This document shows positions 3,952-44,006 of a stretch of 64,000 nucleotides of DNA, one piece after another. The notes under the pieces were generated by a model. The model had not been told where the DNA came from. It did not search any database and was given only the letters and a program-made list of their open reading frames with translations. Source of the stretch: Moniliella sp. 'wahieum'. Taxonomy: Eukaryota. Within the stretch, counting starts at the first letter, position 1. Each line of letters begins with the position of its first letter. The translations under genes were made by a program, and so were the position numbers. Where the stretch lies: positions 186,001-250,000 of the forward strand of contig RSEE01000015.1 of assembly GCA_003971905.1 (NCBI GenBank), written 5' to 3'.

Positions 3952-5004
3952 ATGTCCTTCACAATCAGACCGTCCTGCCAGCGTCGAACCCGCTGGGCCG
4001 CGCTGGCCACCGCCCTCCTCCTTTCCCCGTTGGTGCAAGGCGCGCTCACAAGCGTCAGTCTCTTCCCCAGCTGGAAGGCAAGCCATGCTGGAGCCAACCT
4101 CTCGGCTGTCCTCTTCCCGAGCTATGCCGAGATCGGGATCGAACCGAGTAACCTGCCTGCCATCGTCGGGACCGATTCCGTCAACCCGCTGACGTATGGA
4201 TGTATGGAGGCACTCCAGAACCTGAGTGGGTCATCCCCTCACGTCCGTATTGGTGGTAATACGGGTGACAATGCGCTGTGGAATTCCTCGGCAGAAGGAT
4301 ATGGGTATAGCACCAACACAGCCGCATCTGCTGGGCCCAGCTCCAGTCTTTACTTTGGCCCTGGCCTCTTCAAGGCCATTGATCGGTTGCCCCGAGATAC
4401 CCCAATCACGTTTGGACTCAATTTGGCCTACTCTGGCTCCGATGCGGTAGAGCGGATTGTAGAGACGGCCAATGCGGCCATGGATCACCTGCACAGAACG
4501 TTGACCTGGTCGGGTTTGAAGTTGGGAACGAGCCCGACTTGTACGTTAGCAATGGCTACCGCAAACCAGGCTACACAAAGCAAATGTACGGGAAGGAGTG
4601 GATCACCCGCGTAAAGGCCATCTATCGGCGCGCTCTCAAGCCCCGGGGCAAGCCGGCTGCCATGTTTGAAGCCGCTGTCACGGCCACGACGGCCAACAAG
4701 AATGGCCACCCCTACCGTGTGGTCAATTTGACCCAGGACACACATGGCGTTGGGTACAATGACAGTATGTTTGTGAAGTCACGATCTGACCTTTTTCGTC
4801 TTCTCCTATCCTAAGCTGTATTACATTAACGTCTCGAATTTCCCCATCACGTCCGACTGGTTGCTCTCTCTTCCCAATACCGTGTCGCAACTGTACGAGT
4901 GGCAACAACAGTCCTACCAGGCGTTGGACATGGGCAAACCCTACTACCTGCGCGAAATGGGTTCGATCGGTCCCGAAGGCATTAAGGGCATCTCCGACAC
5001 ATTC
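3952..5004 (+). pseudogene. Secreted glycoside hydrolase family 79 (beta-glucuronidase-like), 3'-truncated at a retrotransposon junction
   Basis: Signal-peptide-like N-terminus, then HVRIGGNTGD, ITFGLNL, GFEVGNEPDLY (acid/base Glu, after a frameshift near 4500) and YYLREMGS (nucleophile Glu). Homology stops at GISDTF. The expected C-terminal part of the barrel and the beta-sandwich are not seen downstream. Probable short intron or indel at about 4765-4815. Confidence 0.8.
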
Positions 5005-5790
5005 CGCACCACGCGCAGCATGTGCAAGTGCGGCGTCATGTCCTCGCTGGAACACATCATGTCCTGCACCCGCACCCAGGCCAAGTTTGGTGCGTTGCAT
5101 GAGGCAGTGCGGGAGCCCATTCTCCAGCTCCTCCGCTCCATCCCCGACACCCACGTCCACAACGAACCTATGGTGGAGGAAGAGGATGGGACGAGGCGCG
5201 GACGGAAGGCACAGCGCACCGATTACCGCGTGATGGGGCCCGGAGCACTGGGAGGAACCGGAATGGAGGTAGACCACACGCTGCGCGACACGGGATCGCA
5301 GGAGGCGCAGAGCGCGTACCGGCGGGTGGTGCATGAGAGCACTGCGTCGCCTTTGGAACGCCGGGAGAAGGAACTGCTTCGGCTGCTTGAACAAGCAGAA
5401 TGCGACAAGAACGCCAAGTACCAGGGACGCACTCAAGAACCGTTTTTCCCCCTGGTTTTGACGACGCGAGGATACTACGGCACCAAGACGGCGGGCAAGT
5501 TGTTCGCGCATTGGAAGGAGTTGGCTACTAAGTCTCAGTGGAAATGGTTCCTCGCTCGTATGTCAACCACGTTCCTCCGTGTCCACACGCGCTTCCTAGG
5601 GTACGGGACCGGATGGCGTGAGCCGGAGGGTCCTGATATCCTGGCGATCCCCCTGGTCCCTTAATCTTGGTGGCGCTACCAAGTAACCCCCGCAAGATGA
5701 ACGGTTCGGTTTAGACGTAGCGTTCCCCCTGTCCCAGCCTTAAGCTCTGTCAATGATATGAATTCAAAAGGGAGATAAAAAGGGAGATAT
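5005..5790 (+). mobile_element. 5'-truncated non-LTR retrotransposon of the RLE type (CRE-clade-like): zinc knuckle, restriction-like endonuclease and 3' UTR
   Basis: CKCGVMSSLEHIMSC (CCHC knuckle), LHEAVR (RH-D/N-like motif), RTD...EVD (PD..D catalytic acids), ECDKNAKY (E..K..KY) and FFPLVLTTRG. Stop at 5664, followed by a hairpin (5666-5683) and a tandem AAAAGGGAGAT x2 (about 5766-5787). No RT domain is present. Boundaries approximate. Confidence 0.75.
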
Positions 5791-6963
5791 CTTTATTTAT
5801 CTTCTTCACTTGAGCTTCATGCATCAGGACTCCAGGTCTCATCAGGCCCGTGTGCCTGTTTTGGCCCCACACAGCCCTCTCGGGCACGACCGCTATAATC
5901 ACTCTCGTCTTCCTGTGTGCCCGTGCTGCGTGTGCGTGCCCCGAATACTATATTGTTGGGAGATTTCGGACTCTCGCCCGCTTCGTAAAGTCATGGCGCA
6001 CCTGCATCTACTTTTACTTTTTGAGGGGGGGGAGTGGTATGTTATGTTGATCCACAGTCGCTGCTCAATGCGCTTAAGCGGAGCTTCCTTTCATCCGGGT
6101 CCCCTTGCACATTGGCCTCGCTCGACCCTTTCTACGTTATTCTCGTGCTCAAGCTGAAATGGGTTGAACAAGAAGATGAATGTTGTGCATAATGTGTACC
6201 CATACTCTTTTCTCCCTTCCGAGTCGGCATGGGGGTCGCTTCACCATAATAGCTGCGGTCGATTTTGTGCAGATCCTAAGGCTTGCTGATTTGTTCTCTG
6301 CAATGGATCCAAACCCTTCTCCGTCCCCTTCCAAATGATCAGAGCTCTGCTTTACCCACAGCACATCGATGGATCATGATATATACTCCACTTTTTTTCA
6401 CTCACACCGGTACTTGGCTTGCGCAAAATAACAAAATAGATGGACTCCTATCGCAACGTACTTCATCCAAGACTCGAGCACCACTCCCCCGTTCTGGTCT
6501 CCCGCGCAGAATTTGTGATGCATGATAGGGAGGTAGTGGATGCTGCGTTCAGTGAGTATGGGAGTACAATCCCGGCCAGCACACTCTCCCCATCCTTCCT
6601 TTGCCCTTGATCCCATGAGTTAATCCCTTCCAAAAACCTTAATGTAAAGTGTAATGCAACTTGTCATGCGTTTGTATTTCCCCCTTTCCTATTCCACCGT
6701 GTGAGCGCTGAGAGTCTCACATTTGGACCCTTCTGCACTCATCCCAGCATAAAAAACGTACCCCGATTCGATCTCCCTGTCACTTCCTTTGGTTCACTCC
6801 GTAATGGCCCAAAGGCGGTGCCACCAACTTCGTGCTGACTTGGCTTGATAGCATGGGATAAGCCGAGCAAAAACGACACAAAACCCTATCCTTCGTCTTT
6901 GCGCATTTTGTCTCGAGGCCCTGGAAGCAGTCCCTTGAATCGCGTATGGCATACGATGGTCTT

Positions 6964-9908
6964 TTATTCCTCTTCGTCGTCTCTTCGCTCACTGGCTCCC
7001 CCAGGACCGTAGAAGTTCCTTCTCTGCACTTCGCTTGAGACTCAAGTCCTCCAGCAAGACCAGCAAGTCCTCATTCTCCGTCTCGGCCTCTTGGACCTGC
7101 ACTGCCTCACGCAGCAAGAGTTGCAGTCGCTCGATCCGTTCCAACAGAACCGGATCAGGCGAAGGAGAAACAAGTGCTTCTTCCTCTCTTTCTTCCTCCT
7201 CCTCCTCAGACGAAACTTCCTTCTCGTCCGCCGACTCCTCCTCGGCCGCCGCCGTCCCAGCAAGCGGCCAGGCGCAAGTCTGCCCACCTCGTCCCGCAAT
7301 CGCCGGATTTCGGCCGCTGCCCCAGCCGCTCCCATGGCGCGAAGGTGCACCTCGGCCTCGAGCTTGGTTCGAAGGGCGGTTAGATTGGCAATGGCCTCGT
7401 CCTGCTTTCTCTCGGCCTCAACATGGGCTTGACGAGCAGACTGTACTTCAGCACGAAGGAGGTGGAGGGAGGCTCGGCTGGCCTCCAGCCTGGGGGGAAG
7501 GGAGGAAGGTGCGAGCGGCCGTGTGTGGGCCATCAGACTCATCGCCCCTTGCCACCACAGCACAAAAGGCCAATCGAACCATTCCCCACCCCAGTCCGGA
7601 CAGCCGGGAAGAGCGTAGGATAGAGGCAGCGGTCCGGGCGTGGGAAGTGCGCCCCCAGCCGGACGCAGACGGGCAAACGTCACATGATCCCGTAGGAGCG
7701 AACTGATCTGGACCAGTTGAGCCAAGGGCGGGACCACCGCCTTGCTTTCTTCTCCCATGGGAGAGGGGGGAAAAGTGGCGTTCACGCCCAGTGCCAACGC
7801 AGCCAGAGCCGGGAGCAAGTCCTCCTTCTCCAGCATTTGGGTGAGCACGGCCATAAGGTCCGGTGAGAAGGGTAGGGCGTAGTCCCACCCCCATTGCGAG
7901 AGGAGTGTAAGGACGCCCACCTGGGTCCGGGGCGCCGGAGCCTGAAGAAGCAATAACATAAACTCCATGAAGGGGATTCTCTTCACGTCAACTGGTTGGC
8001 CTTCCTTCTCAGGCTGGCTCTCGGAGGGTGACACGGGAAGAACGAGGTTGCGGAGAACATCCTTCGCTTCGTTGGAACCCCTCAGTAGGTGGGAAAGAAT
8101 CTGGCAAGCTCGCAATCCTTGTGCATCCAATTTGCCCGTGGCCAAGACGCTGTGCCAGATGGAGAGGATCTGCCCTTCCTGGCAATAGGAAAGATAAACC
8201 TTCTCCACGTCTGGGTCGAGAGGGTCGATTGGTGCCATTGCATCCCCATTCTCTTCAGGAGGAAGAAGCAAACAGTGAATAAGAGCTTTGCGAAGAGCGA
8301 TGTTCTCCCCCAATCGGTCAAGGAGGCTGAGGAAGGCGACATACAGACCCCAGAGCGCACGTGGGTCCTCTGAGCTCTCTTCCAGCCCGATTGTCAAAAG
8401 GGCATGTAGAAGAGGTGGGATGGCACGGGACTGGACGAAGGACGCCTGCGCTTCCAGACACCCTTCTGCCAGCGTCACGACTACCGCCGCGTGCACACGC
8501 ACGTTCAACGGCGAGTCCAAAAGCAGCGTCCCCACCCAAGGAAGTAAGGTGGCGGCAATGTGCCGTTGGACCTCCAATTTGGTCTCATTGAGCTCCTTCT
8601 CCTTGCCCGTCTCATCATTGGCCAGTTCCGACTTCTCTGAATTGTCCGTCTCCTCCTTGGGTGTTTCCTCCTTGGGTGTTTCCTCCTTGGTTGTCTCCTC
8701 CTTGGTTGTCTCCTCCTTGGTTGTCTCCTCGGTTGTCTCCTCCTTAGTTGTCCCTTCCTTCGGCGTCTCATTGTGAATCTCCTTGGTGGTGGGTTGCAAC
8801 GACTCAGGTTCGGGATCGGCCAGCAAGACCTGCAGCACCCTCAGGCCTGCTTGTGCTGTCACCTCCCCTCCTCGTTCAAGGACAGGCCGGAGAAGGGTGC
8901 CGAGGCGCGCTTGGGAGAAGTACTTGCGTGCGCCCTGAGCACGAGTGAGGATGGCCTCGCAGGATTCGAGCGCGTCCAAATCGGTTTCCCAGGGAAGGGG
9001 GATAGTCTCCCGTGCCTGCGCACGAAGAGAGGAAGCGGAGCAGAACGTCCAATCCGCCCTCGTACAGGGCCAGCTGGGCCAACGGCGCACTGTGTCCGAC
9101 CAACGAAGGCAGCAGCAACAACGTTTCCCCCCGCAAGGCCGCACGTGCATGCACCCCCTGTGGTTCTTCTTCGTCCGGCTCAAATTGCGCTTCGTCTGGA
9201 GAGATGCAATGGAGCAGAACGGCCATTCCACCGCCAAGGGACAGCAGCGCTGCTCCCGTTCGCTCCGGCGCCGAGTGAACCAAAGTGCGAAGAAGCGCAA
9301 GGGAGGCCAGCGCGACGCTAGGCGCGTAATCCAAGTCGGGCGAAACTTGCTGCTCCGAAAGGTGCACCCCGGGTCCGAGCAGCGACAAGGACCAGGCCAA
9401 GCCTTCTTGTTTCAAGAACGCTTCGGCCCGCGCTGGGTCGTCGCACAGCGCAGTCAAGGTATCCAGCAACGCCGTCAACACTTCCCCGCGCGCGCGTTCG
9501 TGTACCGCGCGACGAACTTGACGCATGCGCGCGGCCTGGCGTGCCCGTTGCCGCGCCAGGTCTTCCCCACCGGAGGGGGAGGCTATGTGGCCCATGTCAA
9601 GCGGAGGCAGAGGGGCAGGGGCGGGCAAGGAGGGGGAGGGCGTCGAGGAGTGCGGCCCAGGCATCGGCAGCAACGAGGGCGGGCCGACTGCGAGCGAGGC
9701 TGCGGAGACTGTAGAGGGCGGCGCGGACGTCGGCCAGCGCTTGGTCCTGGTCCAGAGGCGGGGACTGGGACTCGGGCGCGGAGGACTGGGGGTTGGCGTC
9801 GGCGGCGAGGGCGAGGCGGGCGGCGAGGGCGCGGACGGTATCCTGCTCGGTGGTGGGCGGGTGGGCGGCGTGCCAGCGCTGCTGCAGCCACGAGGCGGTG
9901 GTGAGCAT
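6964..9908 (-). CDS. USO1: Uso1/p115 vesicle-tethering protein
   Basis: N-terminal TVRALAARL...DVRAALYSLRSLAR, armadillo-like head (LRGETLLLL, GGLDVLLRFL, ARKYFSQ, ILSHLLRGSNEAKDVL), coiled coil, and C-terminal ENEDLLVLLEDLSLKR...VSE plus acidic tail. Several frameshifts. Confidence 0.8.
8650..8770 (-). repeat. 15-bp coding tandem repeat (ETTKE/ETPKE, about 7-8 units) inside USO1
   Basis: Plus-strand units ctccttggttgtctc / ctccttgggtgtttc, translating to ETPKEGTTKEETTEETTKEETTKEETTKEETPKEETPKEE. Confidence 0.9.
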
Positions 9909-22011: not shown

Positions 22012-22098
22012 TGCCTCTTGGCCGAATCGAACGACCGATCTTCTCATTCCAGAATCACAAGATACTAGTGAGATGCTTTACCACTGAGCCAAAGAGGC
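22012..22098 (-). tRNA. tRNA-Thr(AGT) with ~15-nt intron
   Basis: Reverse complement: GCCTCTT TG GCTC AGTGGTAA AGC A TCTCA CT AGT A [tcttgtgattctgga] A TGAGA AGATC GGTCG TTCGATT CGGCC AAGAGGC A. Acceptor, D, anticodon and T arms are recognisable, the intron is at the canonical 37/38 position, and a T-run terminator follows. Confidence 0.93.
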
Positions 22099-42135: not shown

Positions 42136-43744
42136 ACTACCTCTTTTGTAGTGGTAGCCGGTGAAGATGGGCTCCTTTTCCTAAATCGCTGGCCACCACG
42201 ACCTGTTCTGATGCCTGCCCATCCTTGAGGAACGCGAAGGTGATAAGAGGGTGAAGGCATGCGGGCACTACCATACACGTACACCTCTACTATACGCATG
42301 ATATATCCTGACCAATTCATGGTAGTTGTTCGCGGGTAGGTGTGATGGGTGGCTCACCCGCTCATCTTCTGTCGTGATATGTGACAGGGGATTTTGTACG
42401 GGGCCGCATGGCGGATGGCGGACCGTGCTAGTGCTCCAATCCTTTCGCGTCATCTCGCCAGCGTCTCATTTGCTGAGTTGTCGAGCAAGAACATTGAGAC
42501 TTCGGCCTTCTCTCCCCTGTGGTGTGGCGACGGCGAGACCAGCGATGAGATCGAGGGCTCTCCCCTCTCCCGGACCTCAAGCAGGCAGTCCGGAGGTGTG
42601 TGATGTAGGGACAGAGTTTACGAGACCGCGGTAGTAGCGTGCTCGTTGAATAAGCACATCAGGAGCACAACCATACCAAAAAGAGGGTAAGCTGAGAAAG
42701 TTATGAAGGGCTCTACTAGAGACAAACGTGGTTTGGGTGTGGTACAGAAATGTATTCATGACCAGGTAGTGGACGGCATTCGAGAGAGGGGATACGTACC
42801 GGGAAGGAGTGAAGCTTGAAGGTAATTGTAGAAAGTTTATCGCATTAGGGCAGAACGAATGGATGTGCACATGACCGCGATATAGGTGAGGGCAGTAGTT
42901 GCTTGACAATTGATACTCGACGCCCGATTCCCACTTAAACGTTAAACCCTGGGGAGGGCAGCAAAGAATAGCAGAAAGAACAGGGAGTCAGCGACCAATT
43001 CCGGTACCATGAAAACAAAGCTCAGTGAGGTAACTATTGTTCTCATTGCCGACTCAACTCTCCGAGGAGAGGAATCAGGCGTGCGAAGAGCTGGGTTAGA
43101 AGTCAGGCGTATCGCCTTTTGTCATCTTGAATGCCAGATGGGATCGGATGTAAACTTACCTGTTTAAGAGGGAGACCAAAGGGAGACAAGAGAGGCGGTC
43201 ACGAGCCGAGCCTTAATGTCGGTAGGATGCTCGTTCGACGTTCTTTGGTAATGACGATGGTGCAGAGCCACAAAACAGCTACCTGCAGCAAAAGTTTCCG
43301 TGTAGAAACGAAGTGCGGAACAGGTATGATAGAACATCAAACTCCGCCTCCGCCTCCACACGCCACATCAAGTATCGAGTCAAGTCATTCACTGGGTCAT
43401 TGACTAGTCAGTTTTAAAGCGGACGTGGAGGGTGGAGTGGAGCGGAGGTGGAAGGGTCGTGCGACGAAGTCATTGGTAACCAGTAACTGGTTCTAGTAAA
43501 GCTAGTAACTAGTACCAGTAACTCTGGTCGGTGTCTCGTCGATATTAAACCTGAGGGGCCTGAGGCCTGAAGCGTTGAAGCAGCTGACCAAGAGCCTCAG
43601 GAGTGACCTCACCCGTGACCGGTGAACGGTGAACGCAACGAACATGAACGTTCAACGTCAACACGCTGAAGTTCAGCGACACCTCTTCAAGCATCCAGCT
43701 GACGCTTCATCGACCGATAGCTTCATTTCTTAGCTTCATACCAA

Positions 43745-43831
43745 CAAGCAACATACGCCGGATGAGCAGGTCAGTTGAGGCGCAGCGTTTCTTTGTCCCA
43801 GCCTGAGCGCTTAAGCTCTGGCAATGATATG
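43745..43831 (+). mobile_element. Short diverged copy of the sequence forming the 3' tail of the RLE retroelement (5680-5760)
   Basis: Hand alignment: gatgaacggttcggtttagacgtagcgttccccctgtcccagcc-------ttaagctctgtcaatgatatg versus gatgagcaggtcagttgaggcgcagcgtttctt-tgtcccagcctgagcgcttaagctctggcaatgatatg. Confidence 0.6.
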
Positions 43832-44006
43832 GCTACAAATACCTAGAGAGGTTGCAGAAACTGGAGAAATCGTTGAACATTTAATTGCTCTGGGCTTTCA
43901 CTCAGGTATCAGCCGTCAAGGGCGGAGATTAGGTCAGAGTGTGGGGAATGCCGGCATCGCCAACCTGAGAGCTGGACGGCTGTCTCTACCCCACCACTCT
44001 GCCACT

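Follow-up and report, generated by a model that had tools for sequence, protein, structure and literature searches.

Does an open reading frame that runs from GH79 sequence into a retrotransposon endonuclease encode a new enzyme, or is it the by-product of a broken gene? The question arises in the window, the 64,000-nucleotide stretch of DNA analysed here (C15:186001-250000, from an assembly of 69.5 Mb in 223 contigs), where a frame open from stop to stop at 4777-5664 on the forward strand passes from GH79 sequence into a CCHC plus RLE domain. The reading that we favour, with a probability of about 0.72, is that a retrotransposon inserted behind the GH79 gene in one TPRT step, removed the 3′ half of the gene as a target-site deletion and left a pseudogene from which no fusion protein is expected. 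The features of the locus are collected in Table 1.

Table 1. Features of the GH79 remnant and the retrotransposon fragment (window coordinates)
Feature	Position	Strand	Remark
GH79 exon 1 remnant, N-terminal part of the barrel	3952..4773	+	97% DNA identity to the twin on C39
2-nt insertion, shifting the frame 12 codons before the acid/base glutamate	4492..4493	+	not in the other three of the four copies
Acid/base Glu codon, NEP motif	4530..4532	+	within frame 4383-4814
Break point of 81-nt deletion, 3-nt microhomology	4774..4776	+	exon end and donor kept in C39, C64 and C90
3′ remainder of the intron	4777..4815	+	read-through in the exon 1 frame stops at 4812-4814
GH79 exon 2 remnant, nucleophile Glu codon at 4954-4956	4816..5003	+	
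3′ end of the retrotransposon ORF, CCHC knuckle and RLE	5004..5664	+	99.6% DNA identity to a long copy over 752 nt
Element 3′ UTR, closed by the type A terminus	5665..5765	+	41 exact type A ends in the assembly, reversed control 0
Element 3′ tail, 12-mer twice in tandem	5766..5789	+	last 3 nt overlap AT-rich host sequence
Further difference of ~74 nt from C39, missing in the window, 4-nt microhomology	5822..5825	.	polarity not assigned

The first-pass annotation had described one uninterrupted GH79-RLE frame at 4861-5664. The frame is open across the joint, which lies between 5003 and 5004, but its true edge is at 4777 rather than 4861, and its first ATG is at 4930. This frame contains the nucleophile glutamate only, while the signal-peptide-like N-terminus of exon 1 (read by eye) and the first glutamate are in other frames, the ATG frame from 3952 closing at a stop at 4612-4614 and the frame that holds the NEP glutamate spanning 4383-4814. 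Both glutamates presumably have the catalytic roles described for GH79 enzymes. The supposed single product with signal peptide, both glutamates and endonuclease is thus divided over three separately closed frames because of two nucleotides gained at about 4492 and an 81-nt deletion at about 4776, and neither one frame nor native splicing gives a GH79-RLE protein from the DNA as assembled. That the joint itself is in frame is a chance outcome, expected one time in three.

The 2-nt insertion at 4492-4493 may be assembly or consensus noise, since the GH79 copies on C39, C64 and C90 also show frameshifts of 1-2 nt and 163 indels of 1-4 nt separate the twin loci. Frameshifts of the same size occur in all nine long copies of the element, and their frequency suggests an unpolished long-read consensus. 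The 81-nt deletion is harder to dismiss as noise than the insertion. It took the last eight codons of exon 1 (including QHDY), the intron donor and about 57 of the 100 intron nucleotides, and, among the gaps of the window haplotype relative to C39, it is the sole one polarised as a deletion. The motif that was lost, [QSE]HxY, is present in 77 of 79 GH79 homologues. At first this gap resembled a lost intron, as would be left by a template-switch retrocopy in which the 5′ part of a GH79 mRNA was joined to the 3′ end of the element before insertion elsewhere. This retrocopy was rejected and is so improbable as to be negligible, as synteny with C39 extends for kilobases to either side of the locus and the gap takes exon sequence and leaves the 3′ half of the intron.

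The identity of the window copy as GH79 is drawn from the intact copies, because the window peptides alone gave no Pfam domain above the cut-off. C39 and the window run colinear for about 19 kb at 93-98%, on either side of the element, and C64 and C90 form a second pair with the gene order of the window and about 74-83% identity in coding parts. To judge from these identities, the four loci would represent two haplotypes in each of two subgenomes (window/C39 and C64/C90), as expected of a hybrid or polyploid. C39, C64 and C90 each carry a whole GH79 gene, consisting of exon 1, one intron and an exon 2 with PF16862 (GH79C), and in C39 this domain falls within the part that is missing from the window. 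The C64 exon homologous to window exon 1 matches solved GH79 enzymes (E 4e-9 to 4e-6), and the NEP and nucleophile motifs of the C64 exons align with those of the solved enzymes; the intact copies therefore carry what is characteristic of the family, a barrel with NEP and nucleophile Glu and a GH79C domain. Their best named homologues are from smut-fungus relatives (Ustilaginomycotina), at 43-53% identity, and the host probably belongs to the Ustilaginomycotina as well. Several stretches of 15-236 nt that are present in C39 are missing from the window haplotype, at 1656, 2876-2909, 4776, 5822 and 8699-8739.

The window copy has lost the C-terminal ~247 residues together with GH79C. A working enzyme would hold both glutamates, QHDY and GH79C in a single frame, and the window copy does not; it is a pseudogene, one of four copies at a syntenic locus. 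Compared with C39, it shows 9 synonymous and 11 non-synonymous differences in 335 codons, too few, and with too much noise, to tell when function was lost. The RLE domain is not a native C-terminus of the gene, because PF16862 is found in all 79 of the listed GH79 homologues and none of them matches the RLE peptide.

The 786 nt behind the joint, window 5004-5789, form the 3′ end of a non-LTR retrotransposon of ~3.7 kb with a single RT+RLE ORF. A genome search with window 5005-5800 gave 49 matches from the 40 scored of 954 candidates; 40 of these, the window included and all among the best 40 of the 954, cover about 700-796 nt at 94-100%. Exact 22-nt 3′ ends number 110 in the assembly, 41 of type A (that of the window) and 69 of type B, with reversed controls at 0; they are dispersed through the genome, and the shortest copies measure 36 nt, the longest ~3.7 kb. 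Alignments of nine long copies extend over 2.3-3.7 kb, at 95-99.7%; these copies encode an N-terminus that is rich in proline and has a single zinc knuckle, an RT (RVT_1, E 3.4e-17) and the same C-terminus as the window, in open stretches of 961 aa and 712 aa that are broken by assembly-type frameshifts. The 5′ end of the element carries a 28-nt tandem unit repeated 5.4 times. The N-terminal zinc motif is CX2CX4HX4C and not C2H2, the match to zf-C2H2_10 being weak and below the cut-off. The C-terminus holds the CCHC and RH(D/N)...E...(R/K)xD...(D/E) motifs except for an R to L change before H, and in the window peptide the knuckle and RLE residues are C7-C9-H17-C21, H32-E33, E54, R71-T-D73 and E88/D90. 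The C-terminus of the ORF in the long copy L037 and the window peptide do not differ at any residue; the latter has no private amino-acid change, and its catalytic motif is unchanged. The family thus combines many 5′-truncated copies with a common 3′ end, target-site duplications (TSDs) of variable length and no LTR. The first-pass annotation had taken the fragment for the 5′-truncated 3′ end of an RLE-type non-LTR element, with Cnl1 among the examples named, and in this it was right.

The 712-aa protein of L037 found 220 homologues, with PF00078 in all of the 120 listed, and the named species among these 120 were Cryptococcus neoformans (3), Tilletia (3), Wallemia (2) and Cladobotryum (1). 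The window peptide alone matches 50 of the same 120 (blastp, E 1e-3 or better), and the knuckle and the acidic residues of the RLE are invariant in a 15-row alignment. The best C. neoformans match has 34% identity (E 1.9e-92) and belongs to a set of three RT proteins at 33-34%, recorded as 'hypothetical protein', which we infer to be Cnl1. Similarity to these proteins is far above that to R2 proteins, which come first among the PDB matches of the profile (E 1.9e-92 vs 1.8e-22), where the former value is from a single sequence and the latter from a profile and a smaller database. In a tree of 65 RT regions, which held no outgroups, labelled Cnl1 or support values, the family lies among relatives that include the C. 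neoformans, Tilletia and Wallemia proteins. The family is called Cnl1-like here, on the strength of sequence similarity, because the C. neoformans relatives match and Cnl1 is a CRE-type non-LTR element of that species (PMC7175516). The motif spacing of the element fits the REL pattern given in PMC12857005, apart from L in place of the R before H.

Several observations were made around copies of the element. A diverged piece resembling the element 3′ end, followed by a related tail, is present at window 43744-43841 and may be a relative that is older or non-autonomous. Directly before or after element copies (L006/L037, L017, L036, L044, L092, L094, L095 and L104-L106) stand short repeat families, at least three in number, that end in TATG and a similar tail and are possible non-autonomous partners; serial insertions at the same site together with short repeats are seen at C33:561021-561520, C66:264597-264919 and C129:121696-122328. 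Two truncated copies, L004 and L018 (C156:27419-31752), stand head to head about 460 nt apart, and neither site is filled in the twin contig C91. ARAGORN reports a tRNA at window 22012-22098 (-), labelled Tyr and probably intron-containing, and one like it is found shortly before the long element copy in L041.

Comparison with C39, where the gene is whole, confirms a truncated insertion accompanied by a host deletion. Relative to C39, the element replaces 832 nt, of which 740 are coding (about 247 codons) and 92 follow the stop, and the lost stretch ends in C39 in an AT-rich TA run. As had been noticed at the outset, the 3′ half of GH79 does not resume, being absent from the rest of the window, and the window copy has no TSD. 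Displacement of the missing half to another place was rejected, as the assembly holds no near-identical copy besides C39: the search gave 13 matches in all, with 11 of 11 candidates scored, of which the 100% match is the query itself and the next best are 72% and 71%. The notion that the element inserted inside the gene needs revision. The element 3′ end, where target priming starts, is 92 nt past the stop and outside the coding region, and priming was not intragenic because this end sits in the AT-rich stretch behind the gene. The fragment has a complete 3′ terminus and a cut 5′ end like other copies, and host sequence resumes at 5787. An 11-mer of its tail opens 6 of the 41 type A ends, and tandem doubling of the tail was seen in 1 of 48 flanks; the doubled 12-mer was considered as a TSD or as filler from nearby DNA and rejected, since it is the type A tail.

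Given the noisy consensus, the locus might be an assembly artefact in which a repeat stands in place of unique DNA. Three sequencing runs are uninformative on the junction, as one, a DNA run, covers the element only and the other two next to nothing, and spanning reads are accordingly absent from them; in the contigs of the one run, which cover the element alone, normal element sequence continues at 5004. The synteny with C39 nevertheless persists on both sides, the 3′ joint falls exactly at the element terminus and its tail, and the 5′ joint is precise to the base, which makes an artefact very unlikely.

To see how other copies of the family had inserted, filled sites were compared with empty ones. 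Five pairs, a non-random set in which four were chosen for an absent TSD, showed an 8-nt TSD, a TSD-like overlap of up to 13 nt, a near blunt joint, a loss of 4-7 nt and a loss of about 450-460 nt. The last of these is the copy L038 (C40:473843), which compared with the empty allele L046 (C7) has lost its target on the 5′ side. Most copies of the family have no TSD, and TSDs of 8-13 nt accompany some: 6 of 19 longer copies have one of 8-10 nt, and among 20 further copies one of at least 6 nt was found in 3 of the 17 short copies whose 5′ joint could be seen, compared with 22 of 272 in a control of mismatched pairs. Loss of target DNA is among the outcomes described for TPRT (PMC2881922). In the one-step reading, a young Cnl1-like RLE element would have nicked the AT-rich site, 92 nt beyond the GH79 stop, and started reverse transcription from the nick, and the doubled tail looks like a slipped restart of this priming. 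Synthesis of cDNA would have ended after ~790 nt, and the cDNA would then have been joined 832 nt upstream, inside exon 2, with loss of the intervening 3′ half of GH79. The end state is directly visible in the assembly; that these events took place in a single step is the probable reading.

The same end state could have been reached in two steps, if a longer copy with a TSD had inserted behind the gene and a later repair deletion had taken the 5′ part of the element along with the 3′ half of GH79. The window haplotype lacks other stretches of C39 (35, ~236, 81 and ~74 nt), two of them with 3-4 nt of microhomology, and a 4-nt word common to host and element lies 2 nt off the 5′ joint, a near-microhomology, such that a 2-nt consensus error there could hide a microhomology-mediated later deletion. 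As assembled, however, microhomology is absent from the 5′ joint while both other deletions nearby have it, the fragment is 99.6% like long copies and there was therefore little time for a second event, and the copy on C40 shows the same loss on the 5′ side. We consider the two-step history unlikely and retain the single insertion with target-site deletion.

Given that the frame is open across the joint, we also weighed whether a functional or expressed chimera could arise. This would take either an error at the 2-nt insertion together with a cryptic in-frame donor (the GT at 4773, giving a 43-nt intron, or one upstream), or translation from the ATG at 4930, which opens a 244-codon frame through the RLE end and would give a 244-aa stand-alone RLE under the GH79 promoter. 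Nine in-frame GT dinucleotides are present between 4500 and 4790, upstream of the acceptor, that at 4773 being the nearest; the RLE catalytic motif is preserved; and the ATG at 4930-4932 is a substitution private to the window copy, the other three copies having a Thr codon. None of the nine GTs, though, is by eye a good match to the GTRNGT-like donors of the intact copies. The product would be without QHDY, about 247 C-terminal residues and GH79C, and therefore no glycosidase fold is expected, while the signal peptide would route the nuclease away from DNA. The absence of any private amino-acid change in the RLE and of an RLE-like tail from all 79 listed GH79 homologues also speaks against a chimera with a role of its own, which we regard as very unlikely indeed. 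A GH79-RLE fusion would almost certainly be an accident in a broken gene and not a new enzyme, and no such protein is expected from the window copy.

An internal genic site had been considered worthy of note for an element of this kind. It is not, as the family is dispersed and Cnl1 itself inserts into exons and UTRs, with insertions of 180 bp-3.5 kb and TSDs of 0-13 bp (PMC12810828) and at least four genes hit (bioRxiv 2021.08.11.455996). MoTeR, FoTeR and Malassezia elements are reported to associate with telomeres (PMC7367193, PMC12857005, PMC10055393), and CRE elements are described as mostly target-specific (PMC4640811). In the present assembly, 3 of 40 sampled 3′ ends (33 type A, 7 type B) are within 10 kb of a contig end, where about 2.6 are expected by chance (223 contigs, 69.5 Mb), and two tandem TTAGGG units occur in none of 48 element flanks. 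The family is thus not concentrated at telomeres as far as the assembly represents them, which holds only three TTAGGG x5 arrays; the same search gave 43 places in the reversed control, so the telomere unit is weakly established. Most telomeres are probably missing from the assembly, and telomeric arrays of the element could be unseen.

The two 3′ subtypes encode the same RLE protein and have different 11-nt tails (window 5744-5789, L006, L013, L017, L041 and L049-L108). In the few cases at hand, TSDs tend to look like the tail of the copy that they flank (2 of 2 for type A and 4 of 5 for type B, counting one partial 6-mer), and two more type B TSDs among the 20 further copies fit the same resemblance. 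Part of the resemblance is explained by a preference of the endonuclease, because both tails share the shape AA-N4-GAGAT. We tentatively propose, as a possibility that is more doubtful than not, a Cnl1/MoTeR-like family that has left the telomere and spread in the genome interior, with two tail subtypes each inserting at targets like its own tail. If this is true, base pairing between the nicked DNA and the 3′ tail of the RNA partly decides where elements of the clade insert, and mis-joining at the 5′ end deletes hundreds of bases and removes gene copies where the locus exists four times. The literature searched yielded neither a dispersed family of Cnl1-like elements in fungi nor, for this clade, targets that match the tail, a negative that weighs little given the partial coverage of the literature.

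As a chimera, the locus is of little weight: the gene copy is broken, and its joint is in frame by accident. Its value is as a clear case of half a gene lost to a Cnl1-like element, with an empty twin haplotype against which the loss can be read, and the element family, not the fusion, is the better lead. The target specificity of Cnl1 is described as undefined (PMC12810828), and it is hard to read in telomere repeats. Here, at least 110 dispersed copies with empty alleles in one assembly would make target motif, TSD length and deletion rate directly countable.

Among known systems, the element is most readily compared with Cnl1, with which it shares a single ORF with RT and C-terminal CCHC+RLE, a length of ~3.5-3.7 kb, 5′-truncated copies, TSDs of 0-13 bp and insertion into genes (PMC12810828 and bioRxiv 2021.08.11.455996). 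Full-length Cnl1 copies are in subtelomeric arrays, whereas the Moniliella family is dispersed; its N-terminus is a proline-rich tract with a CX2CX4HX4C knuckle, whereas four of seven relatives checked have a C2H2-like finger and none of the seven the knuckle; and RHN has become LHE in the Moniliella family. MoTeR1 and FoTeR of Magnaporthe and Fusarium resemble the element in REL motif spacing (PMC12857005) and in their 5′ tandem repeats, and are set apart, by description, by insertion into telomere repeats and by the telomere motifs that remain at their 3′ ends (PMC7367193). On the host side, the NEP and nucleophile motifs align with those of AcGlcA79A (3vny/5g0m), 7dfq and Ustilaginomycotina GH79 proteins, and PF16862 is present in the intact copies; in contrast to GH79 beta-glucuronidases, the window copy is frameshifted and without QHDY, the splice donor and the C-terminal ~247 residues. 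The arrangement at the joint is that of the target-site deletions described for L1, R2 and other non-LTR elements (PMC2881922), which likewise have an intact 3′ end, a truncated 5′ end, loss of the upstream target and no TSD. The present case differs from these in that the element is of a fungal Cnl1-like family and that the deletions, of 832 and ~460 nt, are read against an empty twin haplotype.
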